Shown here piece after piece: positions 31,976-57,077 of a DNA stretch of 64,000 nt. The DNA is from a virus (lineage: Duplodnaviria; Caudoviricetes). The notes under the pieces are model-generated. The model ran no database searches and was not told where the DNA came from. It was given only the letters and a program-made list of their open reading frames with translations. Made by a program: the position numbers and the translations under genes. Within the stretch, counting starts at the first letter, position 1. Each line of letters begins with the position of its first letter. The DNA lies in the IMG/VR virus record IMGVR_UViG_3300021170_000017, positions 1,545 to 65,544 of that record. One strand, given 5' to 3'.

Positions 31976-32142
31976 GTGGTCCCGTGCCGCAGCAACATGA
32001 TCGCTCCGATCAGGCAGGCGACGCCCAGCCAGCCAAAGTGCGGGGGCGGCCGCGGCGCCGGCGTGGTGAAGAACGTCCAGAACGCCTGGATGATGCAGAA
32101 CACCAAGGCGAAGACCAGCAGGATCAGAACCCAGTTATTCAT
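31972..32142 (-). CDS. Small 2-TM membrane protein
   Basis: Manual translation MNNWVLILLVFALVFCIIQAFW..PHFGWLGVACLIGAIMLL. Confidence 0.6.
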   Translation of the reverse strand: MNNWVLILLVFALVFCIIQAFWTFFTTPAPRPPPHFGWLGVACLIGAIMLLRHGTT

Positions 32143-32636
32143 GACGGCGCTCCCGGGACGGTGATATCAGCAGGCCAATTGCCAGTTTCTATCATGGTCT
32201 CGAGGCGTCCGGCTCGGGCGGGGCCGACTTGCGATGTCCATAACTGGTCACTGCGGATCTCGGCGACGGCGGAAGCATAGTCTTGTTTCGCCATGAAAGA
32301 CAAGAAATGCGGCCAGCGCAGGAGCCCGGCGACGCCGATGTTGTAGGCGATATCAGCGAGCGCCACCTGCCGGACCGGGTCTAAGGCGGCGTACCAGACG
32401 AGATACTTGGCAAGCCCGGCTTGCACCTTGGCAATCCGGTTCTGCTCAATGAACTGCAGTTCCACGGCGTCGAAGCCGGTCATGAGATTGATGCCGATGC
32501 CGGCCGAGAGGTTGCCCTTGAGTGTGTCGCCCTTCTGGAATGTCTTGCCGGTGGCGTCATCGTAGATGTACTGCCGGTCGCCCTCCTCGACCTCGAGTTC
32601 GGCGTCCAAGTGTTCAATCGGTGTGGGTGTGTTCAT
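32139..32636 (-). CDS. Endolysin, GH24/T4-lysozyme-like
   Basis: EEGDRQYIYDDATG..GIGINL..RQVALADIAYNIG..WTSQVGPARAGRL..MIETG. Confidence 0.88.
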   Translation of the reverse strand: MNTPTPIEHLDAELEVEEGDRQYIYDDATGKTFQKGDTLKGNLSAGIGINLMTGFDAVELQFIEQNRIAKVQAGLAKYLVWYAALDPVRQVALADIAYNIGVAGLLRWPHFLSFMAKQDYASAVAEIRSDQLWTSQVGPARAGRLETMIETGNWPADITVPGAPS

Positions 32637-33064
32637 GCGTGCCTCGTGAATGCAAAAACGGCGGATGCGATCGCGGCGGCGATCGAAATGACAGACACCA
32701 GCATCAGCCAACCCTGGTGCAGACCGACACCCTGGTCCTGCCGGCTGTTGACCCGCTTGGTGAGTTCTTCGATCTTGTCAGAGAGCACCCGGAAGGATTG
32801 CTCGGCTTCGCTGCGCGGCATGAGGAGGCGAGCCGAGTCGGCGAGCGCACCGCGGAATTCGTTCATCGACTCGAAGCGCTTCTCGCTCGCCGACTCCGCC
32901 TTGGTCACCGCCCGATCGGCCGCGGCCAGGGCGGCAGAGACCGCCTTCTCGGCGGCGGCGAGCGCGGCGGCCACCGCCTTTTCCTGGGCGTCGAACCGCA
33001 TGTCGACGTACTGCTCGAGGGAGATGTACTCGCCCGCGAGCGGCGCTTTTTGCGGGTCGCTCAT
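32633..33064 (-). CDS. Coiled-coil protein with C-terminal TM helix (lysis region)
   Basis: AEKAV repeats, EKRFESMNEFRGAL, C-terminal hydrophobic helix. Confidence 0.65.
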   Translation of the reverse strand: MSDPQKAPLAGEYISLEQYVDMRFDAQEKAVAAALAAAEKAVSAALAAADRAVTKAESASEKRFESMNEFRGALADSARLLMPRSEAEQSFRVLSDKIEELTKRVNSRQDQGVGLHQGWLMLVSVISIAAAIASAVFAFTRHA

Positions 33065-33399: not shown

Positions 33400-36300
33400 T
33401 CAAGCAAATGCCTCCAATGATTGCACCACGCGCGGTCGCGGCTGTTCGGGCAGTGAACGCCACAGTTCAGCGAAGGCCGGCATCCCGGCGTCGCGCAGGG
33501 CAGCCGCTGCGTCATCACGGCTCCTCCCCTCTATCAGCGACGAAATCTTATCCGCGGCCTCACGGGCCTTGATCTTGTCCTGCCGGATGTCCCGCTCGGT
33601 ACCGCGCTCCTTCAATTTGGAGTCACGGATCTCCTGCCGCAAGGCTTCGACTTCCTCTTTGTCGCCCTTCTCGGTGGCCTTTTTAAGGCGCATCTGCAGA
33701 CCCCGGATGTAGGACTTCTCCGTCTCCCGCATCTGGTAGCGATCCATCTGCTCAGGGGAGGTGACCCGGGCTGGCGCCGGGCCAAACCCGATGTACGGCA
33801 TGGTCGAGAGCACCTTGCCGCGCGCGTCCATCTCGCCCGCGCCTACGAACTGCTTCGTCCCCTGAATCGAGAACGGCACGACCTGGCGCGCCCCGTAGGC
33901 GAGGCTCTGCCAAGTCTGTTTCTCCCATGAGTCGTCTGGGAACCGGATGGCGTTGCCGAAGAAATCCTCATTGGCATAGATCGAATGCAGGATCCCGAAG
34001 AGCGGGTTCGCCTTGTTGATCAGCGTGGTCACCGGCTGGGTGCCGTACTCGTACAGGTCCTTGGTGTAGGAGGGCATCGAGATGCGTTCTTTGGTCCCGT
34101 ACTTCGTCATGCGCCCGGTCCACGGGAAAAAGTAATCCTTGAGCTCCTGCGGCCCTTTGCCCGTGAGCAACTGCTGAATGATGGCCCCAACAATCATGGT
34201 CGTACCGATGAGCGCCAGCGTGTACGGGATCTTGTGCCCGACCTTCTCCGCGACGCGCTGCAGTTTGGACTTCTGCGCCTCATAGTCGAGCCGCGCTTGG
34301 GATGTCTTCGAGAGCGGCGCCGCGGGCAGTTCCGCCGGCGCCCCGCGCGCCATGTAGTCCAAGAGCTTGACCACGTCGATGGGCGCGCCCCCGAGTTCGC
34401 GGATGGTGCCTAAGTTCCACCCCACCGCCCGGACCATCATGTGGTTGACGTCCTTGAACGTGCGGTTCCAGAAGACGTTGTCGTACACCATCTCGCCTAA
34501 GCGGTTGTCGACCGAGTTCCAGATGCGCTGCATGGCACCGGCGAAGGCGACCGGGTCCTCGAGCGGATTCCTGCGGATATGATCAGCCGCCAGGTCCGAG
34601 AAGACGCCCAGTTTCTGGAGCGGCACGATGTGCTCCATGATGATGCTGGTCGACGCCCGGGTCATGCGGCCGGCGATCTCGAGGCCGGACATGATGGGCA
34701 GCACTTTGAGCGGCTCCAACTGCCAGATTTGCTCGAGGTCACGCCATAGCCGCATCGCGTACTGCTGCGGGAAGGAGGTCAGGACCTTGGTGAGCGACTC
34801 GACCTCGCCGCGCGGTTTGGTGAGCGCCGCCTTGACGTCACTCGCCAGCGTCGCGAATCCCACGCCCTTGAACGGCGAGAGCCCTTGCGCGGCCTGGAAG
34901 TAGTTGTCCATCTTGACCCGGCCGCCGGCGGCGGACAGGCCCTCGACGATGCGGCGCATCTCGGGGCTCGCGGTTTTGGGATCCACGTAGGCCCGCATCA
35001 GGCGCTGGCCACGGATCAGGTTCATGGCCGCCCCGCCGATGCCGGTCGATGCCTCCAAGAACGCGGCCACGGCGCGCAGCGGCTCGCCGTGCGCCAGCCG
35101 CTCGATGGCGAGGGCATTTTTCGATATAACGGCATCCAGCGTGGTGAACCCTAAGTGAAACGCCGAGAACCCCAACTGCAGCGCATTGGCAGCGTTCGAC
35201 ATCGCGCGAAAGATCTGCGCCGGCAGGAAATTGCGCAGCGCCGAGCTCGACAGATGATTGTTGATCACCCGCGCGGCGTCGACCGGCATGATGTACTTGC
35301 CGCGCTCGATGAACCCCTGCTCGGTCTCGCTCCACTGCCGGACGCGCCCGACCGCGTCATTGATTTCAGCCCAGTCATCCGGACGAAGCTTGCCGCTCGG
35401 GAGGAACTTGGCCAGCCCCTCGTCCTTGAAGCGCTGCATGAGTTTTACGCCGGCGTAGAAGCGCTGCATCTCGCGCAATTTCGCAAAGGCCAGAACCAGC
35501 GGGTTGGTGCTGATCGGCGTCAAGCCTGCCTCGAGGCCCTCTTTGGTCGTCGGGATAGTCCGCTCTTTCAGGAACGATGCCGGGCCCTTGAGCGGTCGGC
35601 GGCCGAAGATCTGGCCGAATATCTTTTTGGCCTGCGCGTCGTTTTGCCAGATGTGAGGAAAGTAGTTCTCGATGAAATTGTCGAGCGCGCCTACGCCCAG
35701 GCCGCGGATGTTCTCCCGCCAGCCGTCGAGTAGCTTGCGGATGGTGTCCGCGGCCGGTTGCAGATCGGGGCGCGTCGGCCGCCCGCCCTCCATCGCGTCG
35801 ATGAAGTCGTACCGGTCCTGCGTCCCCAGCAAGTCGAATTGCTTGGAGTAGCGCTCGAGGTCCTGCAGCGCCGCCTCCGAAGCCTGCGCGAGCTCGCCCA
35901 GCGCTTCCCTGGTCACTAGGGCCGTCGCCCGGGCCGGCTCCGACACGCCGGCAGGATCGGCGATGCGGCGTAGCGATAGCGTGAACTCGTTGTTCGGGAT
36001 GGCGGCGACGGCGCGTCGCACCAGAGCGTAGGCGCCTTTCTTGGGTGAAGGCGGCTCGGTCCCCGCGCTGCCCTTGCGGCGTTTCAGGAACATCGGCTGA
36101 CCCGCCATGACACTATCCCGCATAGCGGGTGTGATGCGCACCATGTGGGCCGGTACCGGCGGTGAGAGCGACTGCGCAGCATCCAACGCGGCGACATGAT
36201 TGGCCAGGAAGTGACGCTGCTCGTTGGTCCCTGACTGCATGATCCGCTGGTATTGTTCCTCAGCGCCTTCGTGCGGCAGGTTTTGCGAGTCCTGCCAGCG

Positions 36301-39300
36301 GCGAAGCCCCTCGCTGAGCTTAGTCAATTGAGACTCTCGGCCAGAATTCTCGACTGGCAGATTTCCAGCCTCGACCTTGCCGCCCCACTTCTTGACCAGT
36401 TTGCCAACGGTCGCCGGCAGGATCTTGTCGTAGAAGGACTTCATGCCTTCGCCGCCGACCTTGAGGTCGAGGCCCTCGTACTTGACTGCTGGCAGGCCCG
36501 GCGGCTGATTGGCGATCTTGACTGCCATCTCCTTGCCGATCAGGCGCTCGAGCGCAGATTCCTGGACCTCACCGTTGTGGATCGTGCCGCCGGCCTTGTT
36601 GACGATGTGCACCGTGTAGGTATTGGACTTCTCGCCGCCGTGTACATGCTTGATCGCGCCGATCTTGCTGACGTGGTTCTGCAGGTTATAGCGCTCGGCA
36701 TTGGTCTCCCCGGTGTCCCACGACACCGCGTCATAGCCACGCTCGGCCGCGTAGCGCAGCATCCGCTTCATGGCGAGCTCGGGCCAGGTCGTCTTAAATG
36801 GCGCGTTGGGGACAGGCGCCCCGGTCGATCGCGACTCATTGCGGATATCCATATTCACCCGCGCCAGGGCTTCGCGTAGTTCCGGGGTGGTCCGCAAAAA
36901 GGCTCGGTGAGTACCTACCGCGTCCATGGCGTCCTGAGCCGTCGGGAAGATCACCTCCTGGTTGAAACTGCGGCGGTGGCTGCCCTCGTCCATGACCATC
37001 CAGCCCGGCTCGCTGATCCCGCGCAGCACCGTGACCTCGCCCTGAGCCGTCTGCGCCTTGTAGAGCACGCCCTCGTGGCCTTCCTGGTGGCTCTGCAGAT
37101 CCTCGCCCTCCTCCCACTCGAGCGGCGCGCGGGTTTCTTCAATCTGCCGCTCAATGTCCGCCTTCTTGTCCTGGAGCGCCTTGAGCGCGGTGTCCTCCCC
37201 GACATAGCCCTTGCGGCGTCCCTCCTGATGCCAGTCCGACTGCACCTCGTGGACGTGCAGGACGCGCTCGCCGTTCGGGCCCACCCGGTCATCGAAGCGC
37301 ACGTGCGCCAGCACGTTCTTCTGATCCCAGTGGGGGCTGTCATATGCTTGGGCCCGCAGCTTTTGCTGTTCGGCGTAGTAGGCATCGTGGCGCGCGCGGA
37401 GCTCCGCATAGCGCTGCTTCATGGCCGGCGAGAGCGCCTGCTTGGCGAGCAGTTTTTCGTACAGGATGGTGAGCTCACCATTCTCCGGACCAGTCAGGAA
37501 AGGCGTTTTGGCCTCGCGATCGAGCTTCATCAGGAGCTCGCGGTAATTCTCCCCGCCTGGCGTCTTCCACTGACTGTACTGCGTCATCCCGGTTACTTCG
37601 CCCGGCTCGTTCGTTTCATAGAACGGCGCCATGAGTTTCTCAGGTACGCCGTGCGACTCGAACTCGCCGATCGTCTCCTCATCACCGCCCATGGCGCGGG
37701 AGATCGCCTGGTTCAAGTCTTCCATGGCCGACGGGTCCAAGGCATCGACCTCGCCGTGTTCGAGGAACCACTGGCGCAGCGCATGCTCATCGGCGCCCTT
37801 ACCGCCCATGCCGAAGAGTTCCTCACCCAATTGCACGCGATGCGCATTGACGTACTCGGCCACCTCGTCCTTGGTGACCCGGCCACGGCCCTCGAGCCAG
37901 TCCTTGAGGCCGGTCCACTGGATCTCCTCCGCCTTGACGCCCGGCATGTTGCGTAAGGTCGCCTCCCACTCGGCGCCGGTGCCCTTGTCGCGCTTGGCGG
38001 CGTCGACCGCTTTCGCCAGGCCCGAGTAGAAGGTATCCTCAGGACCCGCGAACGCTGGGACAGCATCGGGACCGCCGTCTTTCGTCTGGGTTGCGGTACC
38101 CCGGCGTAGGAATGACTCGAGATCCCCCAGCGTTCGCTTCACGAAGAGGTCGTCGAACTTCTTCGGCAGCCCCATGACACTCCGTATCCAATCCCGCAGC
38201 ATTCCCATCAGACGGTCGAGCCATCGCTTGGCTTGGGCCGGTACCGACTGATCCGCCGCATAGCGCTGGCCGTAGTAGGCGAGCACCTCCTCCGCCGCGC
38301 GATTGCGATGGTGGGCATTGAGAGGATTGAACGTCCCCGGGAACTCCGACTGGCCACGGGCGCGGAACTCCGCCGGCATGGCCTTTCTGATCCCGTCCAA
38401 GATCGCCTGATATCGGGCATCACGGGTATCACCAAAGGCCGCGCGCAAGCCGTAGTGCGTGATGTACTCGTGGGCGATCGAGGAGATCACATCTTCCGGG
38501 CCCTCGAACTGGTCGCCCACCAGGTAGATCTTGTTCGTCTCCGGGTGCATGAACGCGATGACATCACCCGGGTCCTTGTCGGCAAGGTCGCTGGCCAGTG
38601 CCGGGTCGCGTTTGAGCTCGGCCAGGTTCTTGGCGATGACAACGTCCGGCTTAACCCCGAAGCCGCCGATGAACTTATCGACCGTCTGCCGGATCTCGGG
38701 CGTAGACATTGACGGCTCAATTTCCCCGCCTTCACCGCGGCGGTAGAGCACCGACTTCTCGCCGTCCTGCTTGGTCTGGAAGGTATCGACCAGGCGCTGG
38801 ATGGCCGCATTGATGGCCGGTCGATCCTCAAGCGGATAGGGATTGCCCTTGTAGCCGGTCGCATAGCGCTCGCCCTCGGCGCCCTGGACCAGGTAGTCGC
38901 TCTGGTTGCCCTCAGCCTTGATCTTGTCTTGGACATAGCCCTCGAAGGCGCGCGCGAACATCTCCGTCGGCCGGCGCCAATACTCGCCCAGCGCTTGGGC
39001 ATTCCGGATGTAATGCGTCGGTCGCTCGCCGAAGGTACCTTCCGGATTCGCCCGCGCGCCCTCGATGCGCTTGCGCACGTCGGGGATCTGCACATCGTTG
39101 AGGAACGACCGCTGATTGTTGAGGGCCGGGTCGCCAGGGCTCGTCTTCAACATCTCGTCGATACGGTCGATGCGCGCCCGCATGTTCTCGAGCGACAGTT
39201 CGCCATCGCGGATGAACTCCGCGGCGCCTACCTTGCGCTTGAACAGCGCCTCCATGACCCCGTTCCAGGCTTCCTGCATCTCGGGGCGCAGATGGGCGAG

Positions 39301-42300
39301 CGAGCGCCGATCGGCATACCAGCCAGACGCACCGCGAGCGCCCGTCGTGTAAGCATCCGAACGGCCGAACTCGCCCATGTAGTGATCGAGCGCATGGGCC
39401 CATTCGTGTGCAAGCGCGCCGGCGCCGTTGATCTTGGTCATGTTGATGACCAACTTGCCGGGCTCATAGTGCGCCGCGAACCGGCCGCCGCCTCGAGCTC
39501 CGAGCGCGAGGCCCATGGTGCCGTTCAAGCTCAGCGCCTTCGGGGGCAGGTTCATGATGCGTGCCAGGTCCTGCAGGCCCTCATAGGCATAGTTGAGCAG
39601 CCGCTGCCGCTCATCGTTCGCCGCCCAGTTACCGAACTCAAGGCCACGGAAGCCTAAGTCCTTGACGAAGTCGGTGCTGGTCACATCCCCGGTGCGCACG
39701 GGCGGCCCGATGCGGTTGATCTCGTCCAGGTGCGGCCGCTTGGGCTCCGGCGGACCTTTGTCCTTGACGACCGCGCCCGGTTCGGCGGCCTCCTTGACCT
39801 TCTTCGCGGGCCAGCCGGCGGCGAGCAGCTGGTCCGCCTTGCGCTGATCGCTGTAGGCAATGTGCAGCGTCGAACGGCGGCCTTTCTGAATGGACCAGAA
39901 CTTATCCCGCGCTTCTTTCTCCTCCGGCGTCGACGCAATCGAGTAGCCGCGGGGCATCTTGAGTTCGGTCGCCAGCGCATTGCCGATCTTGCCGATGTCC
40001 TCCGGAGTGTCGGCCGCGAGCATCATGTCGCGCACCCGCCCCATGATCTCGACGTAATGCCGGCGCCCTTCCGGGGTATTCATGCGCGGCTTGGCGGCCA
40101 ACTGGTCGAACAGCACCTTGGCCATGGCGAGGGTCTTCGGGCTATGACCGTCGTCGATCAATTGCTGCCAGTTGGGGTTCCAGACGGCCTTCTTGTTGAC
40201 CAGCGTTGCGGCCTCGCCTTCCGACATGCTGGAGAGGTCCGCGAGGCGCATGCCGCGCTCCGCCCATTTGTCCTTGCGCGCGCCACCGATCTTCTCGCCG
40301 GCGTCCTCGAGCGCCCCGGTCGGCTTGATACCCAACTGCTGTTCAACGGCGGCCAATCGCTCGGTGACCGTCTTCGGCACATCGGTGAGATCCGTCTGCT
40401 GACGCGCCTGGCTGAAGAGGTCCCCGGGCTTGCCGGTCTCGACCGACTCTTGTCCCGTGTTGCGCTTCTTGTCGAGCGCCGCCTCGAGCTTCTTGATCTC
40501 GTTCTTGACGTGATCGACCGCACCGAAGAGGTCCTGCTGCACACCCGGCGGCTTGCCACCGCGCTGGAACGGGATCCGGTCGAGCTCCTCCTCCGACTCG
40601 GCCTCGGTAGCCAACCCGGCGCGTTCAATCTCCCGCTCGAGGCGGTCCTGCTCCTGGCGCAGTTGCTCGAGGCGCGCCACGGCCTGGTCGACCGATAGCT
40701 TGGCGAGCTCGGCATCGCTCAACGGCGTGCGCCAGTCTTTGGCCGCCTCCGGCAGGCGTGAGTCGTTGTGGCTGGAGAAGTGCTGCTTGCCGCGCAGTTC
40801 GTCGTCGATGCGGTCTAAGAGGACATTCGGCGAGTAATGACCGTGCTCATCGGTGACCGGATAACCTGCCTCCGCCAGCGCTTCCGCTGCGTGGTCGAAA
40901 GACATGCCGCCTGCACGGAAAGCTCTCTTGATTCCAACATGAGCAGCTGCAAGCCGCATATCCGCGGGGTCGACACCCTGGGATCCAGCTTCTTCGCTAT
41001 CCAGGCCACGCGGATGGCGAGCCAGGAATTGGAGAATGCTGTCGTGGTGAGGATCTGGGCCAGGAGATCGTTTAACCGTGACGCGCGGTACCGACTCGGG
41101 GTCGATGGGCTTGGTGAGGTCGCCCTCTTTGAGCCAGCGCTTGAGCTGGGACGGGGACAGTTCCGTAATGCCCCCCAACCCTTTCCAGTCTTTCGGGTAG
41201 TGGGATAGATACTGAGCCCGAGCCTCCGCCTCATTACGTACGCCAACTTGGACCTTGTGCTCATCGAACTCACCCTTCGGGTTCAACTGGTCGATCACAT
41301 AGGCTTTGTCCGCGTCCGCGTGCGGGCCCATCATGATGTCGATGCCGTCTTCGTCGGCACCTTTGGTCCCCGGAATATACCCGTAGTCGGCGCGCATCAG
41401 GCGCTTGCCCGGCTTGCCGGTCCGCGCATCGACGAACCGCCGGTACTGGCCCTTCGTGTTCTCAATCTTGATCGGCAGCCCGTGCCACTCGACCGACGGC
41501 TTGAAGTAATTGCCGGCGGCCGCCTGCGGGCCGGTGGGGACGTCCGGCTTGCGCTTTACTTCTTGGCCGAGGACTTCGGCGGCAGGCGCACCCCCACCAG
41601 CCGGAAGCCCTGCTTCACGAGCCCGGATGCTCGCGTTCGGAGGCTGTTCTCCGCGGGCAGCACGGACGCCTTCGGCTTGCCGTCCTTGCTTGGCGGCGTT
41701 GAGGTTGCCTTCGGCTTCTTCGAGTGTGGTGCCTGTGCCATGGGAGAGTCCTACCCCTTTGAGTTCAATGGTGCGGCCGTCCGGATGCGCAAACGTGAGT
41801 GTTGCACCATCGAGACGCGCCTTCGCTCGAGCCATGGCCGCCTCTGCGGCCGCATGATCGTCGCCTTGGACGACGAATTCGTCCCCCGAAATATGATAGG
41901 CATTGCCGCCTGACTCCTCGTGCAGCGCCTGCGCCACGGTCTTGAGCAACTGGTCGCCGCCCTCGTGGCTCGCGTTGTCGTTGATCCACTTGAGTGAGTC
42001 CACGTCGACCGACACCTGCGACGGCTTCTTGGCCGAGTCCTCATAGGCCCGGCGGTTGGGGATCCCGGTCAGCTCGTGCGTGAGGAGCGCGGCCTTCATC
42101 TGCTCCGGCGTCATCTGGTCGACGCGCTGGCGCAGGCCCGTGGCGGAGCGGCGTTCGACCTGGGCAACAGGCTGCGTGCGCTCGAGCTCGGTCTCAGGCG
42201 CCCGCTCGCCCGTTTCAGTAATGTCCTTAAAAGTTGCAGGTTTACCCTGTTTCGTTTCACCTGAGGGAGCTTTTGTTGCACTGGGAGGCGTTTCCGTCTC

Positions 42301-44229
42301 ACTTGCGGCGGGTTTCGTACCCACGACCTTGCGCGCCTGCGCCATCGCCTGGCGTGCCGCTTCGACGGTATCGAACTGGGCAACCGGCTGGCCTTTCACA
42401 TGGACCGACCAGCCTTCTTCCTCGGGCTCGAGGGTTACATCCGACCGCTTCTCGGCCGCGGCCGCCGCGGTATTGAGTGCGTCGACCTTGGCTTGATACG
42501 TGGCCCGAGCACCCGCGGCGCCGGTTGGCGCCTCGGCACCGGCGGCAGCGGCGCCTCCGCCGGCAGGACCAGTTCCTCCAGGTCCAGGCGCAGCCCCCGG
42601 CGCGGCGGCTCCCGGGCCTCCTCCAATTCGGGGAGTGCCGCGAGGAGCGCCGCCAGCGCCAGGAGATGTCGGTTCATAGCGATGCGTGTCCTCGTTCCAT
42701 TCGTAGCCGGGATAGGTTTGCCCTGGCTTCATCTGCGGGCCGCCCATGGCATCCGATGCCGCCTTGACGCGGTTCAGGAGCTCATCGGCGTCCAGGTCCC
42801 GCCGCGCCTGCGCTGCTCGAGCGCGCTCCGGCGCCCCCATGGCGTCATGCGCGATCGCGATCGGCGCGGCCGTTATTGCGGACGTGACGCCCGTGTAGGC
42901 AATGTCTTTGAGCGCATCCGAGAGCGTCGTCTGCTCGTGGACGATGCCGGTATCGACCGCCTTCTGAATCGACGCCTGCAACATGCCACCGGCGCCGTTC
43001 GCGACCATGGTGCCCGCAATCCGCCCACCGGCAGTCTGGCCCACCGCGGCGCCCACGATGCGGTCGAGCACCGCCTTGCCGGCCGGCGAGCGGGAAAGGA
43101 CCGCCGAGACGGGGATGGCGCCCGCCGCATCGCCCACCGCATAGAGGAAGCCGGCGGTGTTGGCGATCTTGTCCGAGCTCGCCGCCAGGTCAGCCGCTTG
43201 CTGCCGGAGATCATTCGTGACCGGGTTCAAGCCGCGCTTGCCGCCGATCGGCGCGGCGTCATCTAACTGGTCCGCCTTCTCGAGGATGCGACTCACCTGG
43301 TCATCGATCTTGTTCTTGGCGTCCTCGCGTTGCGCCGGCGCAAAGAGTGCCGTCGCCGTCGCAGCACCGGCGCCCATGCCGACACCCGGACCGCCGACGG
43401 CAGTCCCGGCGACCGTTGCGCCCGTCACGGCCGCGAGATCGGGGATGGCGAGCGCGGCGTTGAAGGCGATGCCCTTGGCGCTCCACGGGTCGAGCTTGCC
43501 GTTCTTGAGGTCTGAGGGCTGCCAGACGCGCTCATCGGCCCAGGCTTGGTTGCGAGTCCCGCGGCCGGCGGTCACATTGTCGCGGCCCGCCTCGAGCGTC
43601 GCCTGCGCGCGCGCCGCGTTGTCCGCCTGCTGCTCCGGAGACAATCCCGATATCGCACTCCAGTCACCGGCGAACTCCTGCGGTGAGATCCCCAAGGACC
43701 GCGCCGTCTTCTGCACCAGCGGATCCTTGGCGAGCTGATCGGAGGGGACGATGCCCTTGTCCGCGCCCATCCGGGCCGCGACCTGGGGCAGGACATTGAG
43801 GGCCGCCGCCTGCCGCTCGGCGCTCTGCACCTGCGCCGCACCCGTCGTCTCCTGATACCCGGCCTTGAGCTTGCCGAACTCAGCACCGACCAGGTGCGGA
43901 TAGGCCGTGGCCAGCGTCGAGACGTCAGGCCCCGACGTGAACCGGTCCGCCTCCTCGCCCACCGATTGGCGCAAGGACGGCAGGATGCCGGTCACATAGC
44001 GCTGGTCGGTATCCGAGGGGCTCGCGGGTTCGTGGCCGAACAGCAGTTCCTTGCTGCGCTGGAGGAGGCCGATGGAGTTATCGACCGGATGTGCAGCCGG
44101 ATCCTGATGCGGCCGGACGAGCGCCGGGACCGATGCGGTATCGGGTCCGACCGGCTTCCACGGGTCTTGCGCGGGGGTCGCGGCCGGCGCTTGAGTATCG
44201 GCACCCTGAGCAATCCAGCCGGCGCCCAC
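33400..44229 (-). CDS. Giant polyvalent (putatively ejected) protein with GGDEF, inorganic PPase-like, LPD5-like, LPD1-like and zincin MPTase domains
   Basis: 3609 aa after the ejection genes. LTGIPNRR..DVDSLKWIND..GDQLL..ISGDEF (~41680-42090). IENTKG..DYGYIPGT..DEHKV (~41105-41490). DAGEKIGGARKD (~40300). EFGNW..LAHEWAHALD..EMFARAFE..PYP (~38780-39650). AHEYITHYGL..AEEVLA (~38250-38480). PGGENYREL..HEVQSDWHQ (~36400-38030). Confidence 0.9.
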   Translation of the reverse strand: MGAGWIAQGADTQAPAATPAQDPWKPVGPDTASVPALVRPHQDPAAHPVDNSIGLLQRSKELLFGHEPASPSDTDQRYVTGILPSLRQSVGEEADRFTSGPDVSTLATAYPHLVGAEFGKLKAGYQETTGAAQVQSAERQAAALNVLPQVAARMGADKGIVPSDQLAKDPLVQKTARSLGISPQEFAGDWSAISGLSPEQQADNAARAQATLEAGRDNVTAGRGTRNQAWADERVWQPSDLKNGKLDPWSAKGIAFNAALAIPDLAAVTGATVAGTAVGGPGVGMGAGAATATALFAPAQREDAKNKIDDQVSRILEKADQLDDAAPIGGKRGLNPVTNDLRQQAADLAASSDKIANTAGFLYAVGDAAGAIPVSAVLSRSPAGKAVLDRIVGAAVGQTAGGRIAGTMVANGAGGMLQASIQKAVDTGIVHEQTTLSDALKDIAYTGVTSAITAAPIAIAHDAMGAPERARAAQARRDLDADELLNRVKAASDAMGGPQMKPGQTYPGYEWNEDTHRYEPTSPGAGGAPRGTPRIGGGPGAAAPGAAPGPGGTGPAGGGAAAAGAEAPTGAAGARATYQAKVDALNTAAAAAEKRSDVTLEPEEEGWSVHVKGQPVAQFDTVEAARQAMAQARKVVGTKPAASETETPPSATKAPSGETKQGKPATFKDITETGERAPETELERTQPVAQVERRSATGLRQRVDQMTPEQMKAALLTHELTGIPNRRAYEDSAKKPSQVSVDVDSLKWINDNASHEGGDQLLKTVAQALHEESGGNAYHISGDEFVVQGDDHAAAEAAMARAKARLDGATLTFAHPDGRTIELKGVGLSHGTGTTLEEAEGNLNAAKQGRQAEGVRAARGEQPPNASIRAREAGLPAGGGAPAAEVLGQEVKRKPDVPTGPQAAAGNYFKPSVEWHGLPIKIENTKGQYRRFVDARTGKPGKRLMRADYGYIPGTKGADEDGIDIMMGPHADADKAYVIDQLNPKGEFDEHKVQVGVRNEAEARAQYLSHYPKDWKGLGGITELSPSQLKRWLKEGDLTKPIDPESVPRVTVKRSPGPDPHHDSILQFLARHPRGLDSEEAGSQGVDPADMRLAAAHVGIKRAFRAGGMSFDHAAEALAEAGYPVTDEHGHYSPNVLLDRIDDELRGKQHFSSHNDSRLPEAAKDWRTPLSDAELAKLSVDQAVARLEQLRQEQDRLEREIERAGLATEAESEEELDRIPFQRGGKPPGVQQDLFGAVDHVKNEIKKLEAALDKKRNTGQESVETGKPGDLFSQARQQTDLTDVPKTVTERLAAVEQQLGIKPTGALEDAGEKIGGARKDKWAERGMRLADLSSMSEGEAATLVNKKAVWNPNWQQLIDDGHSPKTLAMAKVLFDQLAAKPRMNTPEGRRHYVEIMGRVRDMMLAADTPEDIGKIGNALATELKMPRGYSIASTPEEKEARDKFWSIQKGRRSTLHIAYSDQRKADQLLAAGWPAKKVKEAAEPGAVVKDKGPPEPKRPHLDEINRIGPPVRTGDVTSTDFVKDLGFRGLEFGNWAANDERQRLLNYAYEGLQDLARIMNLPPKALSLNGTMGLALGARGGGRFAAHYEPGKLVINMTKINGAGALAHEWAHALDHYMGEFGRSDAYTTGARGASGWYADRRSLAHLRPEMQEAWNGVMEALFKRKVGAAEFIRDGELSLENMRARIDRIDEMLKTSPGDPALNNQRSFLNDVQIPDVRKRIEGARANPEGTFGERPTHYIRNAQALGEYWRRPTEMFARAFEGYVQDKIKAEGNQSDYLVQGAEGERYATGYKGNPYPLEDRPAINAAIQRLVDTFQTKQDGEKSVLYRRGEGGEIEPSMSTPEIRQTVDKFIGGFGVKPDVVIAKNLAELKRDPALASDLADKDPGDVIAFMHPETNKIYLVGDQFEGPEDVISSIAHEYITHYGLRAAFGDTRDARYQAILDGIRKAMPAEFRARGQSEFPGTFNPLNAHHRNRAAEEVLAYYGQRYAADQSVPAQAKRWLDRLMGMLRDWIRSVMGLPKKFDDLFVKRTLGDLESFLRRGTATQTKDGGPDAVPAFAGPEDTFYSGLAKAVDAAKRDKGTGAEWEATLRNMPGVKAEEIQWTGLKDWLEGRGRVTKDEVAEYVNAHRVQLGEELFGMGGKGADEHALRQWFLEHGEVDALDPSAMEDLNQAISRAMGGDEETIGEFESHGVPEKLMAPFYETNEPGEVTGMTQYSQWKTPGGENYRELLMKLDREAKTPFLTGPENGELTILYEKLLAKQALSPAMKQRYAELRARHDAYYAEQQKLRAQAYDSPHWDQKNVLAHVRFDDRVGPNGERVLHVHEVQSDWHQEGRRKGYVGEDTALKALQDKKADIERQIEETRAPLEWEEGEDLQSHQEGHEGVLYKAQTAQGEVTVLRGISEPGWMVMDEGSHRRSFNQEVIFPTAQDAMDAVGTHRAFLRTTPELREALARVNMDIRNESRSTGAPVPNAPFKTTWPELAMKRMLRYAAERGYDAVSWDTGETNAERYNLQNHVSKIGAIKHVHGGEKSNTYTVHIVNKAGGTIHNGEVQESALERLIGKEMAVKIANQPPGLPAVKYEGLDLKVGGEGMKSFYDKILPATVGKLVKKWGGKVEAGNLPVENSGRESQLTKLSEGLRRWQDSQNLPHEGAEEQYQRIMQSGTNEQRHFLANHVAALDAAQSLSPPVPAHMVRITPAMRDSVMAGQPMFLKRRKGSAGTEPPSPKKGAYALVRRAVAAIPNNEFTLSLRRIADPAGVSEPARATALVTREALGELAQASEAALQDLERYSKQFDLLGTQDRYDFIDAMEGGRPTRPDLQPAADTIRKLLDGWRENIRGLGVGALDNFIENYFPHIWQNDAQAKKIFGQIFGRRPLKGPASFLKERTIPTTKEGLEAGLTPISTNPLVLAFAKLREMQRFYAGVKLMQRFKDEGLAKFLPSGKLRPDDWAEINDAVGRVRQWSETEQGFIERGKYIMPVDAARVINNHLSSSALRNFLPAQIFRAMSNAANALQLGFSAFHLGFTTLDAVISKNALAIERLAHGEPLRAVAAFLEASTGIGGAAMNLIRGQRLMRAYVDPKTASPEMRRIVEGLSAAGGRVKMDNYFQAAQGLSPFKGVGFATLASDVKAALTKPRGEVESLTKVLTSFPQQYAMRLWRDLEQIWQLEPLKVLPIMSGLEIAGRMTRASTSIIMEHIVPLQKLGVFSDLAADHIRRNPLEDPVAFAGAMQRIWNSVDNRLGEMVYDNVFWNRTFKDVNHMMVRAVGWNLGTIRELGGAPIDVVKLLDYMARGAPAELPAAPLSKTSQARLDYEAQKSKLQRVAEKVGHKIPYTLALIGTTMIVGAIIQQLLTGKGPQELKDYFFPWTGRMTKYGTKERISMPSYTKDLYEYGTQPVTTLINKANPLFGILHSIYANEDFFGNAIRFPDDSWEKQTWQSLAYGARQVVPFSIQGTKQFVGAGEMDARGKVLSTMPYIGFGPAPARVTSPEQMDRYQMRETEKSYIRGLQMRLKKATEKGDKEEVEALRQEIRDSKLKERGTERDIRQDKIKAREAADKISSLIEGRSRDDAAAALRDAGMPAFAELWRSLPEQPRPRVVQSLEAFA

Positions 44230-44230
44230 G

Positions 44231-45523
44231 TTACTGCCTCGTCAGCGGGCCGCTGCTCACCTGAGTGGGCTGGCCATCGATGCCGATGGTCCACTTCCCC
44301 TGCGCGCCGAAGTCGCGAACCATGCCCGGCTTCAAGCCCTGCAGAGCCTGGGGCGGTGGCTTGTTGCCCGGCTGCACAATGGGCGCGTTCGCTTTGGTGA
44401 CCGCGCCGGCGCCGTACTGATCCAAGATGTACTGGTCGGCGACGCGCTTCGCCTTCTCATCATCGCCCATCGTCGCCTGCATCACCGACTTATAGATCGC
44501 CGCATGGTCCGCGTTGACACTGCCGGTCTTGGGCTTGAACGCAATCTTGGCGGCCGTGTCCTGGTCCATGCCGAGCACATTGGTCAGGTACTTGTGGGTG
44601 CGCACCGCGGCGGGGTCCTGGTTCGACTTGTCGATCCCGGAACCGGCTTCCTTGCCGAGTACTCGTCCCTGGAAGGGCTTGCCGTCGATGCCGGTCACGG
44701 GCTCCGCGTGCGCATGGCCGTCCTCATCACGCACCAGCGTGTGAATGACGCCACCGGGCCCGACCGCGTAGGTGGCGGCGCCCATCCCGGCGGATTTGGT
44801 GGCCGTGGCGCCAGCGATGTCCTTGAAGGCGCCGGCCACGTTCTTGGTCTCGGTCGTCTCATCGAGATTGCGCTTCTCCTGAGCGGCCATCGCGGCGGCC
44901 GGCGTACCGATCCCGGCCTGTTCTTTCGCGCGCGCGGTCTCGATACCCTGCGCCTGCGTGTCATACGCCTTCTGCTTGTCCGCAATCTGTCCCTGGTTGG
45001 CGTCGTGCTGATCGGACATGACGCCCGCGAGCACCGCGCCCTGGTTGGTCGTCGCCGGCGCGGAGGCTTTCATGAGGTGCAGGCCGAATTCGAGCAGCGC
45101 CGCGAACTTCTCCTTCTTGGTCTGCGGTTCATCGTCCGACGGGCGAGCGCCCATCTGGGACTTCATGTTGTCGTACTTCTCGTCGATGTCGCCGTGCTGC
45201 TTCTGCCACCAATCCATGTAGTCGGTGCGCGACTGCGGCTTCATGGCATTCAAGAGGTCCAACGTGGTCTGGGCCTTGGCGAGCTTCTTGGGGTCGTACT
45301 CGGGCTTGACGTCTGGAGTGGCGATCTCGCCCTTGCCCGTGCCCTGCTGGATGGTGCGGCCCGGCTGCGGCTGTGACAGCGGGGGAGCCGCGCCGGCGCC
45401 GGGTGCGGCTGGCTGCGACGGGGAGGCGGCGGGACCCGGCGGCTGGCCACCCTGAATGGGCGGCATCGACGGCTGCTGGACGTCGGAGAGGTCCGGATCG
45501 GGAGCGATGGTGCCGGCGGCCAT
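44231..45523 (-). CDS. Putative internal virion/ejection protein
   Basis: Position between the DNA-transfer-like gene and the giant protein; ALLEFGLHLM motif; helical and low-complexity. Confidence 0.6.
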   Translation of the reverse strand: MAAGTIAPDPDLSDVQQPSMPPIQGGQPPGPAASPSQPAAPGAGAAPPLSQPQPGRTIQQGTGKGEIATPDVKPEYDPKKLAKAQTTLDLLNAMKPQSRTDYMDWWQKQHGDIDEKYDNMKSQMGARPSDDEPQTKKEKFAALLEFGLHLMKASAPATTNQGAVLAGVMSDQHDANQGQIADKQKAYDTQAQGIETARAKEQAGIGTPAAAMAAQEKRNLDETTETKNVAGAFKDIAGATATKSAGMGAATYAVGPGGVIHTLVRDEDGHAHAEPVTGIDGKPFQGRVLGKEAGSGIDKSNQDPAAVRTHKYLTNVLGMDQDTAAKIAFKPKTGSVNADHAAIYKSVMQATMGDDEKAKRVADQYILDQYGAGAVTKANAPIVQPGNKPPPQALQGLKPGMVRDFGAQGKWTIGIDGQPTQVSSGPLTRQ

Positions 45524-45526
45524 GGC

Positions 45527-46570
45527 CTAGCCCCCCTCGATCGATGGCATGGTGGGCGCTTGACCCGGGTCGACCGTGATGTTGGAGAGACTGTTCGAAC
45601 CCGTGGTCGCACCCGAATCGTACATCCCCGCGCCAGAAGACCCCATCGGCGGCGCACCCGAGCCGCTCGAGGAGCCGCCACCGAAGAGGCCGGCAACCGT
45701 GGAACCCAACCCCAGCAACTGATTCGCCGTGTTCGACTGAATGGCCGGCGTCTGCGCGGGACTGCCCTTGGCACTGCCGACCGCAGAGATCAGCGAGCCC
45801 AACTGCTGCGCGCTCCAGTTCTGCTGACGCATGAACTGCGCGTACTGATTCGAGAGGTCGGTCTGGGCGATCACCTGGGCGACACCGCCCGTCTTCATGA
45901 GATCGCTGATCTGCGAGGAGGTCATGTTGGTGACGTCCATCCCCGCCTGTTCGTAGGCACTGGCCGCCGCCAACTTCTGCTGGTTGTCCGACTGCCAGGT
46001 CGAGATCGCCTTGTCGTAGGCGTTGGCGTTGCCGGTCGCCGTCAACTGCCCCACGTTCAAGTTCTGATCGGCCGCGAGCTGGCCCTCTTGGATGGCCTCG
46101 CGACTATTGCCGAATGATCCCGACCCCGCCGCACCGCTCTGGATGCCAGCCAAGCTTTGCAGATACTGCTTGTTCGAGGCCGCGACCGACGCATCAGTGA
46201 CCGCGGCCGTATAGGGACTCATGTACTTGGAGGCCGTATCGGCGTTCCAACCGTTATTCGCCACCTGACTGATGAGCCCGGTCGCTTGCTGGTTGTCGCC
46301 CTGGGCGATGCCATTGGTCGCGGTCGAGGACGCCAGGCTGTATGCCTGCTGCTGATTGCCGGACATGGGCGCGGTCATCGTGCCGGTGTAGGGCGTGAAC
46401 GGCTGTTGGGCGACGTTCTCCGCCTGGTTCAACATGCTGCCTTGCGCGCCCGCCAACTGCGCCGCGCCGGCGTTGTTCTTCTTGGCCGCCGATGCGGCCG
46501 ACTGGTTGCTGGCGATGCTCTCGCCCGCGTCGATCGCCGCGATACCTGCTGAGACCCATCCGGCTGGCAT
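45527..46570 (-). CDS. DNA transfer/ejection (pilot-like) protein
   Basis: Q/A/G/S-rich. PFTPYTG..APMS..QQQA, YMSPYT, GSFGNSR, QLLGLG are typical of podovirus ejection proteins. Confidence 0.75.
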   Translation of the reverse strand: MPAGWVSAGIAAIDAGESIASNQSAASAAKKNNAGAAQLAGAQGSMLNQAENVAQQPFTPYTGTMTAPMSGNQQQAYSLASSTATNGIAQGDNQQATGLISQVANNGWNADTASKYMSPYTAAVTDASVAASNKQYLQSLAGIQSGAAGSGSFGNSREAIQEGQLAADQNLNVGQLTATGNANAYDKAISTWQSDNQQKLAAASAYEQAGMDVTNMTSSQISDLMKTGGVAQVIAQTDLSNQYAQFMRQQNWSAQQLGSLISAVGSAKGSPAQTPAIQSNTANQLLGLGSTVAGLFGGGSSSGSGAPPMGSSGAGMYDSGATTGSNSLSNITVDPGQAPTMPSIEGG

Positions 46571-46572
46571 TG

Positions 46573-47223
46573 TTACCCTGCCTCGGCAGGCGGCGCGGCG
46601 CCCGCATAGTGATAGTCGTAGCACACCGGCTGCTGCAGTCGCATGCAGATGATGAGCGTGATCCGCTCCTCGTTCGTCGGGTTCTCGACCCAGTGCGTCT
46701 TCGAGTTATCGAAGGCGAAGAGATCGCCGGGCTTGGTCTCGAGTTTGTAGCCCTCGTAACAGAACTTCTGGCCCTTGGCCGCCTTGATCTGGACGCCGAA
46801 TTTGAGGTAATGCTCGGCGTGCCAGCCCTTGTCGATGTGCTTGCCGACGCTGCACTTGGGCGGTATGCGCGTAATCAGCACCATGCCTAACCGCTCGGCG
46901 TAGAACATGCGCATGAGATCGAACACCAGCGGTTGCAGGTACGGTAGTTTGTCGTACGCGCCCCACCACACCGATTCATGCTCGCCGTTGAAGGCCGCGC
47001 GATCGCCCGTCCAGTCCTTCCAATCACGGAAGCGGCAGATGATGTCGGAGATCTTCTGGTGCGGGTTGCCGCCGTAACTGCCCTCGGTACGGAACACGTT
47101 CTGGTCCCAGAGCTCAGGCGCAGCATCCAACTGCTGGATCAATGGGGCCACCACCACATTGCGGTGCAGGATGCGGATAGGGCGCTGAATCTTGGTGACG
47201 CTGACTTTGAGTCTGGCGTTCAT
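46573..47223 (-). CDS. Aspartyl/asparaginyl beta-hydroxylase-like 2OG-Fe(II) oxygenase
   Basis: ERLGMVLITRIPP..KHIDKG (HxD)..FDNSKTHWVEN..ERITLI (distal His and 2OG-binding Arg). Confidence 0.85.
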   Translation of the reverse strand: MNARLKVSVTKIQRPIRILHRNVVVAPLIQQLDAAPELWDQNVFRTEGSYGGNPHQKISDIICRFRDWKDWTGDRAAFNGEHESVWWGAYDKLPYLQPLVFDLMRMFYAERLGMVLITRIPPKCSVGKHIDKGWHAEHYLKFGVQIKAAKGQKFCYEGYKLETKPGDLFAFDNSKTHWVENPTNEERITLIICMRLQQPVCYDYHYAGAAPPAEAG

Positions 47224-47747
47224 GCACATGCCTCGATGAGTCGTTTGCGGAAGTCCCGTACACGGACGGGGTCTATCCGGACTTTATCGAAGCAAGGCTC
47301 GACGTGCATCTCGCAGAGCTGCGCATGGCGGTGCTCGTCGAAGTTCCGCTGCACCAGGTGCTCATAGATCGGCCGCGCCGTGACCGCGTTGAACAGGTCC
47401 TCATACTGCACGTGCATGCCCTCGAGGCGCTCGAGCGCGCCGCGCCAGAGCGAGCCCAGCGGGGTCAGACCCAGCGTGACCAGCGAGCGGTTCACGTCGT
47501 CCAAGTCACGGTGCACGATCACCTTGCGGGCTGGATGCGTGTTGACGAACGCCGGCAGGAGACCTAAGGCCGTGCAGGAGATGCCGAGCATGCGCCCGAC
47601 GTGGATCTGGTCCAAGAGCTCGGGACGGTGTTCGAAGACGGGGTCGTGCAGGCAGAGCGAATGCTCGGTCGTGAGCCAATTGGCCGCCCAGGTGCTTGCG
47701 GAGCGAGGCGCACTCAAGACCATGAACTTGACCAAGGAGGTCTCCAC
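47220..47747 (-). CDS. Sulfotransferase-like P-loop protein
   Basis: FMVLSAPRSASTWAANWL (5'-PSB-like), CLHDP, VIVHRDLDDVNRSL (3'-PB-like), VQYEDL. Confidence 0.65.
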   Translation of the reverse strand: METSLVKFMVLSAPRSASTWAANWLTTEHSLCLHDPVFEHRPELLDQIHVGRMLGISCTALGLLPAFVNTHPARKVIVHRDLDDVNRSLVTLGLTPLGSLWRGALERLEGMHVQYEDLFNAVTARPIYEHLVQRNFDEHRHAQLCEMHVEPCFDKVRIDPVRVRDFRKRLIEACA

Positions 47748-54283: not shown

Positions 54284-54540
54284 TAGGCGGGTCTCCAGAC
54301 GCCGTGCTCGAGGTAGCCGTGATAGACCTCGAGCGGTTTGCCATCCCGGCTGGTGTACACCGCGATCGAGGGGCTCACCGTGATGGTGCCGTCCTCGTGC
54401 TCGACGACCTTGTGGCCGCCGAGATTGCCCGCGTGGTCATTCGGCGTGATGGCAATCCAGCACTCGTCCTCGATCGAGTAGCCATAGTCGCCCGGCGACC
54501 AGAGGTGCCAGTCGAAGCCCGGGACGCGGCGTCCTATCAA
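54283..54540 (-). CDS. DUF6527-like small protein inside the tail module
   Basis: HEDGTITVSPSIAV..YHGYLEHGVW. Confidence 0.55.
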   Translation of the reverse strand: MIGRRVPGFDWHLWSPGDYGYSIEDECWIAITPNDHAGNLGGHKVVEHEDGTITVSPSIAVYTSRDGKPLEVYHGYLEHGVWRPA

Positions 54541-56195: not shown

Positions 56196-57077
56196 TTATC
56201 CGGCCGCGGCTGCCTGCTGTGGTGGCGGCCCCGGTATCGACGCGATAGGTGCCAAGGGTGCGTACACCCCTGATCTCGCTGCGATCATCACTTCGCCGCG
56301 GGCATTAGGTAGAAGTTCTTCATAGTATTTCGTTTTCATGTCGGCATAGCGGTCATCGGCTTTGAGCCACTGCTCGGCCTCCATGAGGCAGGCGACGAAG
56401 AGCAGCTGGCCCTCGTTATCGCCAATCCAGGTGTTCTGCGCGACGACGATCGATGGCGGCCGCTGCACATAGCGGCGCTTGATGGCCGTCGCGTTGGCAT
56501 CGGCCGCGGGCCCGAAGATCCAGGTCGACTGGCCCTGGTCCGCGTAGTAATACGGCCGCCCCGCCGCCGCGGCGAGATAGCCCTGCATGAAGTCCCACGA
56601 GCGCTTGACCATGAGCTTGGTCGCGCCGTTGTAGACCACCCACAAGTTGCGCTCGACCACGAACTGACTCGAGATGACCGCGTTCGCCGTCACGGCATTG
56701 GCCATCGGCAAGGTCCAGATCGCCGTGGTCTGTCCATTGGTCAGCGTCACCGACTGGATCTCATTATCGGAGAAGGTGACGACATATGGCCCGGTCGTGC
56801 CGGTCCAGGCGCTCGCCAGCGTCGCCGAGGTCGCATTCGGATTGATCGCCGCGTTGAAGACGAGCGGCTGGCTGCCGAGCGGCTTAAGGAGCGAGGTCGC
56901 CGCCGGGGCGATCGCCACCTGGTCATTCACATCGAAGATATCGAGGTCCAAGTCCACGACCACCCGCAGTTCGCCCAAGTAGATCAGACGATTGATGCTG
57001 GCGAGATACGCAGCGCTTGCCTTCAAGGGCCAGACCTGCAGGGCCGAGTACAACTGCTGGTAGCTAAATCCGAGCAT
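56196..57077 (-). CDS. Head-tail adaptor/tail tubular-type protein
   Basis: IYLGELRV..DLDL, GRPYYYA, NTWIGDN..LLFVACLMEA. Confidence 0.75.
   Translation of the reverse strand: MLGFSYQQLYSALQVWPLKASAAYLASINRLIYLGELRVVVDLDLDIFDVNDQVAIAPAATSLLKPLGSQPLVFNAAINPNATSATLASAWTGTTGPYVVTFSDNEIQSVTLTNGQTTAIWTLPMANAVTANAVISSQFVVERNLWVVYNGATKLMVKRSWDFMQGYLAAAAGRPYYYADQGQSTWIFGPAADANATAIKRRYVQRPPSIVVAQNTWIGDNEGQLLFVACLMEAEQWLKADDRYADMKTKYYEELLPNARGEVMIAARSGVYAPLAPIASIPGPPPQQAAAAG

Follow-up and report, generated by a model that had tools for sequence, protein, structure and literature searches.

A GGDEF-type cyclase domain and a phage-type pyrophosphatase domain side by side in a giant polyvalent protein of a short-tailed phage

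A 64,000-nucleotide stretch of a virus (Duplodnaviria; Caudoviricetes; IMG/VR record IMGVR_UViG_3300021170_000017, positions 1,545 to 65,544; the whole stretch is called the window here) encodes a protein of 3609 residues in which a GGDEF-type nucleotide cyclase domain is closely followed by an inorganic pyrophosphatase domain, InPase. This raises the question as to whether the two domains work together, with the pyrophosphatase clearing the pyrophosphate (PPi) that the cyclase would release, or are unrelated cargo that happens to travel in one polypeptide. The best explanation overall, to which we give a probability of roughly 45%, is that the gene encodes an injected polyvalent protein with a feedback-free cyclase paired to its neighbouring pyrophosphatase. 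Below we present the evidence for the identity of both domains, ask how closely they are associated in related proteins, and place the giant gene among its neighbours and among known systems.

Two enzyme domains within one giant gene

The segment that carries both domains (41105-42090, minus strand) corresponds to residues ~714-1041 of a single open reading frame (ORF) of 3609 amino acids. The GTG start of this gene agrees with the N-termini of homologs, and a six-frame reading of the virus record gives an open frame of 3613 amino acids, without stops, at the same place. The IMG/VR record is a complete viral genome of 65,544 bp with direct terminal repeats, rated 100% complete, which rules out a prophage inside a bacterial genome. 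The gene and its two domains are arranged as follows:

33400..44229 (stop codon included), minus strand: giant polyvalent protein gene, 3609 residues, GTG start, from the ORF list
41620..42132, minus strand: GGDEF-type nucleotide cyclase domain, residues 700-870 (Pfam core 719-849, nucleotides 41683-42075), from Pfam, PDB and the structure model
41875..41889, minus strand: SGDEF active-site motif, residues 781-785, from the translation
41548..41619, minus strand: linker, residues 871-894, low predicted local distance difference test (pLDDT) values at model residues 184-191
41110..41547, minus strand: phage-type family I inorganic pyrophosphatase domain, InPase, residues 895-1040 (Pfam 902-1034, nucleotides 41128-41526), from Pfam and the structure model

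A preliminary description of the window had read a full GGDEF catalytic set from the letters, and all the motifs it quoted are present in the translation: VDVD (D742, D744), K747..N750-D751, G758-D759..L762, and NAYHI followed by SGDEF. It had also proposed a profile search and a structure model as checks, and both agree with its reading. Pfam GGDEF (PF00990) matches residues 719-849 with an E-value of 3.8e-8 and 33.7 bits against a cut-off of 23.8 (39.8 bits in a six-frame search), many diguanylate-cyclase models of NCBIfam match at the domain level, and PDB sequence matches include DosC and PleD. An AlphaFold2 model of residues 690-1045, based on 29 aligned sequences, has a mean pLDDT of 89.2, with a low-confidence linker at model residues 184-191, and shows a diguanylate-cyclase fold. 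The best Foldseek matches are SiaD, PleD, SadC and DgcB (E ~2e-7), and VIA ranks DgcB at Z 16.2 (root-mean-square deviation (rmsd) 2.7 over 148 aligned residues), with diguanylate cyclases overall at Z 14-16. An mCpol/Cas10-type polymerase in place of a GGDEF domain was considered and rejected on the clear GGDEF motif and the Pfam match.

Conservation was assessed in 198 related GGDEF segments from search-returned proteins, aligned to the profile; equivalences to PleD D327, N335, D344 and R366 were taken from the printed PDB-search alignment. The metal-ligand aspartate D742 (PleD D327) and the base-recognition residue N750 (PleD N335) are present in all 198 segments, K747 in 194, and D759 (PleD D344) in 178, with Asn in 17. 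In the motif itself the first position is Ser in 165, Gly in 26 and Ala in 5, followed by G782 (198), D783 (197), E784 (197) and Phe (189). Further along, K847 is kept in 197 and R850 in 182 of the 198; from our own reading of the C-terminal motif we take these to be PleD K442 and R446. Judged by these residues, the domain is predicted to be a complete cyclase, with its metal-, base- and phosphate-binding positions all present, and the Asn and Asp kept at the two positions of base recognition suggest guanine as the base. The absence of the inhibitory RxxD site had been claimed as well, and this holds: no RxxD feedback site (I-site), which would lie five residues before the motif, is found upstream of SGDEF in the window's protein, and the canonical form occurs in only 2 of 199 related segments. 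P0023, a protein with the InPase-then-GGDEF order, has an RHTD site. Without an I-site, no feedback by the product would be expected.

The evidence for the second domain is of the same kind. The motifs that had suggested a PPase-like domain are found at DYGYI (948-952), D959-E-D961-G-I-D964 and DEHK (989-992), and Pfam InPase (PF18823) covers residues 902-1034 with an E-value of 1.5e-41 and 141.9 bits against a cut-off of 26.8, spanning profile positions 3-135 of 135. Given these E-values, neither domain match is due to chance. The domain does lie downstream of the cyclase, as described; the spacing is somewhat less than the ~60 residues first given, namely ~53 between the Pfam envelopes or 25-30 between those of custom profiles. 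The closest PDB sequence match is the C-terminus of the Pa193 portal (E 4e-24 to 1e-25), besides bacterial PPases. Since the match lists obtained with the two-domain model were taken up by GGDEF structures, InPase was folded on its own (pLDDT 90.7). All eight chains with Z of at least 5 are family I PPases (Z 5.7-6.7, 101-136 aligned residues, rmsd 3.4-4.8), and the next match has Z 3.7; the moderate Z values indicate a diverged member of the family I fold.

Among 132 InPase segments, E923, Y949-G950, D959 and D964 are invariant; R930, D989, E990, K992 and Y1007 are each kept in 131, D961 in 121, and the positions of DEHK (989-992) in 119-131. An alignment to chain 6k21_A places K921, E923, Y949, D959, D961 and D964 at PPase active-site positions, which we take to correspond to residues among K29, E31, Y55, D65, D67, D70, D102 and K104 of the E. 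coli enzyme. K921 is not conserved, the most frequent residue there being Thr in the 132 relatives. The sequence thus predicts that the acidic metal-binding residues of InPase are intact. For both domains, conservation across such diverged segments is what selection on catalysis produces, which supports their predicted activity.

The two domains as neighbours across homologs

If the two domains were coupled, they might be expected side by side in other proteins as well, and the preliminary description had named a lack of association across homologs as grounds for giving up the idea. We looked at this in four samples, all made of cluster representatives chosen by the search tools, with many truncated metagenomic proteins among them. 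The fourth consists of the closest relatives by C-terminal core, and the third uses this core of the giant protein as query:

33550..36252, minus strand: C-terminal conserved core, residues 2660-3560, which defines the virion-protein family; 96 relatives at E <= 1e-20, with varied cargo

A two-domain query against large proteins gave 120 listed proteins, a sample biased by the query: GGDEF and InPase occur together in 37 of them, GGDEF without InPase in 16 and InPase without GGDEF in 67. The cyclase domain by itself, searched against 1.84 billion representatives, gave 10,839 matches at E <= 0.001 and 216 at E <= 1e-30; domain maps cover the best 150 of these GGDEF relatives, 88 of them with at least 2000 residues. 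In this set InPase lies within 100 residues of the cyclase in 30 proteins (16 after it, 14 before it) and 104-404 residues away in another 19. The median gap in these 49 proteins is 75 residues, compared with 670 under random placement, a test that, like Fisher's test below, ignores relatedness. The 96 proteins found with the C-terminal core come from a query that is blind to cargo: 34 have both domains, 7 GGDEF only, 20 InPase only and 35 neither, giving an odds ratio of 8.5 (Fisher p 4.7e-6, relatedness ignored). In 33 of the 34 the domains are adjacent, 21 with GGDEF first and 12 with InPase first. Custom profiles found a GGDEF domain in P0269 that the precomputed Pfam list did not have.

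The descent of the pair was examined on a FastTree tree of 199 cyclase segments, without branch-support values considered. Adjacency changes at least 23 times on this tree (shuffles: mean 43.8, minimum 38), and domain order at least 7 times (shuffles: mean 15.4, minimum 10). All in all, the neighbourhood is real and recurrent. That it is seen with either domain first speaks for some advantage of lying close together.

Several observations weigh against a coupled, working pair. First, neither domain needs the other: 101 of the best 150 GGDEF relatives have no InPase, and 67 of the 120 large relatives have InPase without GGDEF, so that the claimed association holds as a tendency and not as an obligatory one. 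Truncation may account for a part of the former group, as 42 of 127 GGDEF segments without InPase are near a protein end. Second, the closest C-core relatives P0050, P0267, P0030 and P0049 align with the window's protein up to residues ~661-690 and again from ~856, and have 55-88 unrelated residues in place of the cyclase segment; InPase is kept and GGDEF is absent. This clean presence or absence of GGDEF beside a retained InPase identifies InPase as the resident and the cyclase as a cassette in this lineage. Third, adjacency could stem from descent or from a favoured insertion point between modules. Fourth, a two-domain query against 50,697 isolate-phage records gave 509 matching records, none of which covers 80% of the query or has both domains. 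Fifth, bacterial host cells are already rich in pyrophosphatase, which makes the need for a private one less clear. Finally, two features of the cyclase itself count here: residue 779, at the position of PleD Arg366, is His (His in 177 and Arg in 20 of the 198 segments), and no dimerising element upstream of the GGDEF domain is evident in the AlphaFold2 model.

These observations feed the most serious competing explanation, that the two domains are independent working cargo. InPase would then have a general role, either clearing PPi for early transcription and replication or cleaving a nucleotide signal, and GGDEF would be one more exchangeable module that lands at the same inter-module junction. 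Both InPase roles are listed by Iyer et al. (PMC5512222), and the distribution fits: InPase has a much wider spread than GGDEF, forms a fusion with the portal in PB1-like phages and, among the 57 closest C-core relatives (InPase in 50, GGDEF in 38), occurs alone in 16, whereas GGDEF occurs alone in 4. Independent cargo accounts less well for the direct neighbourhood, in both orders, of nearly all core-family co-occurrences and for the short gaps in the wider set of proteins, and one inherited block explains the repeated changes of order and adjacency on the tree poorly. We regard independent cargo as unlikely on balance, but as an alternative to be taken seriously. Taken together, coupling of cyclase and pyrophosphatase is plausible and not obligatory, and neither domain depends on the other.

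Two further searches concern the pair as such. P0122, a protein of 455 residues on a phage-sized contig of 65,305 bases, consists of just the GGDEF-InPase pair (67% identity); a giant gene may be split or frameshifted there, or the short protein may be a genuine stand-alone form. Alignment of the two-domain segment to bacterial species genomes gave only ordinary GGDEF genes, with no two-domain prophage copy and no clue to the host, among the best 80 of 514 matches, which reach only query residues up to 182.

Architecture of the giant protein

Beyond the two enzyme domains and the C-terminal core, the giant protein has these regions:

42160..44229, minus strand: N-terminal conserved region, residues 1-690, with Ala/Gly/Pro-rich stretches; 51-64% identity to the N-termini of close relatives
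39292..39714, minus strand: zincin-like metallopeptidase-type region with HEWAH, residues 1506-1646; NCBIfam CLCA_X E 3.7e-35, and PHROG 616, 29900 and 18947
38770..38988, minus strand: LPD1 domain, residues 1748-1820, containing HEYITH; Pfam PF18796 E 6.5e-17, over cut-off
36310..38772, minus strand: conserved region of ~800 residues, 1820-2640, containing HEVQSDWHQ; found by tblastn in 12 of 80 related viral loci

The CLCA_X match is below the NCBIfam whole-protein cut-off. No Pfam family matches the region at 1820-2640, which contains further polar motifs besides HEVQSDWHQ and may be an unnamed enzyme module. Likewise, a Pfam search of the N-terminal region (residues 1-690) gave nothing beyond a sub-threshold YtxH match, and four segments of the protein outside the assigned domains gave no Pfam match over the cut-offs. 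At the nucleotide level, the 5' third of the gene has a single, chance-like 42-base match in isolate phages. The G+C content of the window reaches 0.69 at 42001-44000, in the N-terminal third with its long Ala/Gly/Pro-rich stretches. For the C-terminal core, neither a PDB sequence search nor tblastn against the 50,697 isolate-phage records gave a match; a hydropathy scan finds one strongly hydrophobic helix in it, at residues ~3333-3357. PHROG 10089, 'DarB-like antirestriction', covers residues 495-1042, and the other PHROGs matches are giant families of unknown function. With GGDEF, InPase, LPD1 and a zincin-type region in one polypeptide, the gene product has the architecture of a phage 'polyvalent' protein, and we assign it to this class from its predicted domains: conserved ends with exchangeable enzyme modules between them.

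Gene neighbourhood and related loci

The preliminary description had placed the gene in a virion or ejection module, and gene order supports this placement. The neighbours are:

56196-57077, minus strand: SU10-type adaptor, from neighbour annotation
54537-56186, minus strand: tail-fibre-like gene, from neighbour annotation
50066-54283, minus strand: LamG-rich protein, 1405 residues, with three Laminin_G_3 matches and PHROG baseplate/structural-protein matches
46573-47747, minus strand: overlapping genes of a PHROG 'hydrolase' (175 residues) and an Asp/Asn beta-hydroxylase-like cupin protein (218 residues)
45527..46624, minus strand: DNA ejection protein homolog, the upstream neighbour; PHROG 4287, E 1.5e-13
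44231-45523, minus strand: protein of 430 residues and of no family, between the ejection homolog and the giant gene
32139..32711, minus strand: lysozyme-like gene, downstream; PHROG 33534, PHROG 7 and a weak Pfam Phage_lysozyme match

From its domain matches, the LamG-rich protein is probably a tail nozzle or receptor-binding protein. The phage further encodes a major head protein, a portal-like protein and the two subunits of the terminase. In IMG/VR, 135 contigs carry a relative of the cyclase pattern, and 80 of these were kept as related loci. The order LamG protein, 622-residue protein, hydrolase, hydroxylase, ejection homolog and giant gene recurs in L082, L083, L085, L088 and L092, so the hydrolase/hydroxylase-like pair between the tail and ejection genes is kept in five related loci. 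The lysozyme-like gene has the same position in L083, and 8 of the 80 loci have an ejection-protein homolog upstream of their GGDEF match. Together the neighbouring genes form the virion module of a phage with a short tail, and the giant gene stands where internal and ejection proteins are kept. This gene order makes it probable that the giant protein is packaged in the virion and enters the cell together with the DNA. The phage has neither a PilZ nor an EAL domain, so any target of a cyclic dinucleotide would be in the host.

Comparison with known systems

The pair had been put forward as the strongest candidate for an undescribed system in the window, and this claim finds no support. Polyvalent proteins were defined in 2017 by Iyer, Burroughs, Anand, de Souza and Aravind in J Bacteriol (PMC5512222), and the window's protein resembles those described there as a giant multi-domain product of a virion gene with LPD1, zincin, GGDEF and InPase domains. 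GGDEF is listed among the polyvalent-protein domains as a predicted maker of cyclic nucleotides that is 'not very widespread', and a phage clade of type I InPase is described as probably packaged, with portal fusions noted (PMC5512222). InPase was proposed to act on nucleotide signals or to clear PPi that inhibits nucleotidyltransferases or polymerases, and processing by metallopeptidase domains before packaging was discussed, as for P1 DdrB (PMC5512222). GGDEF and InPase as domains of phage polyvalent proteins, and the idea of clearing PPi, have thus been known since 2017. Iyer et al. treat GGDEF and InPase apart, and in the running text of that paper, as distinct from its figures and supplements, we found neither the direct neighbourhood nor the cassette behaviour (PMC5512222). 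New here are the residue-level conservation, the association numbers, the two domain orders, the cassette behaviour and the tandem forms (see below). As the idea is already in print, the locus adds numbers on association and conservation, and not a new kind of system.

Bacterial diguanylate cyclases such as PleD, WspR, DgcZ, DgcB and SiaD share with the window's domain the fold, the metal, base and phosphate ligands and the GG[DE]EF hairpin. Unlike them, it has no sensory or dimerising partner domain and no RxxD, and it differs further in having SGDEF, His for PleD Arg366 and a place within a 3609-residue virion protein. Phages also carry stand-alone GGDEF proteins of 145 residues (YuA-like Pseudomonas siphophages and the Bordetella phages CN2, MW2 and FP1), which are ~38% identical and have SGDEF too. 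These are encoded by small separate genes of the early region, are not virion proteins and do not stand beside an InPase domain; we found no functional study of them in the literature searched. In Pseudomonas phage vB_Pae_HLL23 (L001), the stand-alone SGDEF gene is at 6022-6459, and a separately annotated 'putative pyrophosphatase' lies ~6 kb off.

For InPase, a comparable case is the portal-InPase fusion Pa193 gp19 of a PB1-like myophage (PDB 9B41 chain L, residues 638-763), a closely related domain that is part of the particle; there InPase is fused to the portal and has no GGDEF partner, unlike in the window's protein. Portal residues 529-765 have no density in the reconstruction (PMC11456595), which means that there is no structure of a phage InPase domain. 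In the literature searched, as far as it covers the papers cited here, we came across no experiments on a GGDEF or InPase domain from a phage. Finally, the concept of an enzyme that is delivered with the DNA and works ahead of phage gene expression is shared with T4 Alt, the N4 virion RNA polymerase and P1 DarB (PMC5512222); their activities differ, and delivery of the present protein is putative.

A possible mechanism and its alternatives

The coupled reading starts from the identity, fold, conservation, adjacency and gene context observed above, and activity, product, pairing, coupling, packaging, ejection and purpose are inferred from these. The giant protein would be made with the tail and ejection proteins, packed, and delivered into the cell with the DNA. 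There, the cyclase would most likely join two GTP into cyclic di-GMP (c-di-GMP) and release two pyrophosphates. In this enzyme family each GGDEF domain takes up a single GTP, so c-di-GMP can form only where two such domains come together. Here the partner domain would have to be supplied by another copy of the giant protein; internal virion proteins of T7-like phages are present in several copies per particle. A two-copy complex prediction for residues 690-1045 scored 0.34 against a mark of 0.42, with controls at 0.00. Tandem GGDEF pairs are found in 7 of the best 150 relatives (P0139, P0140, P0141, P0166, P0169, P0196 and P0198), and both copies keep the motifs in six of the seven, the first copy of P0140 being degenerate. 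Such tandem forms would fit, and suggest, a need for two domains. The neighbouring pyrophosphatase would remove the pyrophosphate on the spot. The outcome would be a sudden rise of a host second messenger, either in the early phase of an infection or in the cell at a late stage of it, and the cyclase cassette would come and go, on either side, beside the resident pyrophosphatase. The preliminary description had proposed a burst as the DNA enters, which might serve to shut down pili or flagella, to exclude superinfecting phages or to interfere with immunity.

Apart from independent cargo, three alternatives concern the product, the place of action and the activity of the cyclase. One is that the domain makes another product, for example a cyclic dinucleotide that is mixed or contains adenine, or a linear molecule, and that this product would saturate, mimic or decoy nucleotide-based immunity of the host. 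GGDEF-fold enzymes with other products do exist: in Panoptes, a minimal GGDEF/Cas10-like polymerase makes 2',3'-c-di-AMP, and Ser versus Asn decides between adenine and guanine recognition (PMC12657218). Ser as the first motif residue in 165 segments, together with His at the Arg366 position in 177, makes 'H-x-SGDEF' the signature of a clade of its own, and conflict genes typically come and go as cassettes in this way. However, the guanine-recognition residues N750 and D759 are kept (in 198 and 178 of the 198 segments), and the best structural matches are all c-di-GMP synthases; another product seems to us improbable.

About equally improbable is an action in the producing cell. In that case the module would work late, before or without packaging, or the zincin-type domains of the protein would cleave off the cargo, which would never leave with the DNA. 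By its position the giant gene would be expressed with the late structural genes, the HEWAH and HEYITH regions are part of the protein itself, and metallopeptidase processing before packaging is among the points discussed by Iyer et al. (PMC5512222). On the other hand, ejection is suggested by the position of the gene, directly following that of an ejection-protein homolog, and by the conserved C-terminal core with its hydrophobic helix, and T4 Alt and the N4 virion RNA polymerase, as cited by Iyer et al., are injected (PMC5512222).

Many bacterial GGDEF domains are degenerate receptors, and the Ser and His substitutions and the unseen dimerisation element might suggest that the domain is catalytically silent, a nucleotide-binding or structural module. 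We consider this very improbable, since degenerate domains usually lose the metal, base and phosphate ligands that are near-invariant here over 198 diverged segments; SGDEF and AGDEF enzymes have also been reported to be active.

The preferred reading, an injected feedback-free cyclase paired to a pyrophosphatase, has a wider version that we think doubtful, a long shot. Here, the cassette and the resident pyrophosphatase would form a self-contained, feedback-free, PPi-pulled generator of cyclic dinucleotides that enters with the DNA and is swapped between related phages as an arms-race trait. It might flood or decoy the cyclic-nucleotide sensors of the host, among them guard systems that monitor the second-messenger pool, or shut down surface structures under c-di-GMP control within seconds of infection. 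Natural pairs of nearly identical phage proteins, one with the cyclase cassette and one without, allow a direct comparison. If the preferred reading is true, phages would bring a second-messenger synthase into the cell as a finished enzyme, and not merely encode one, which would be a way of hijacking or confusing bacterial signalling and nucleotide-based immunity.

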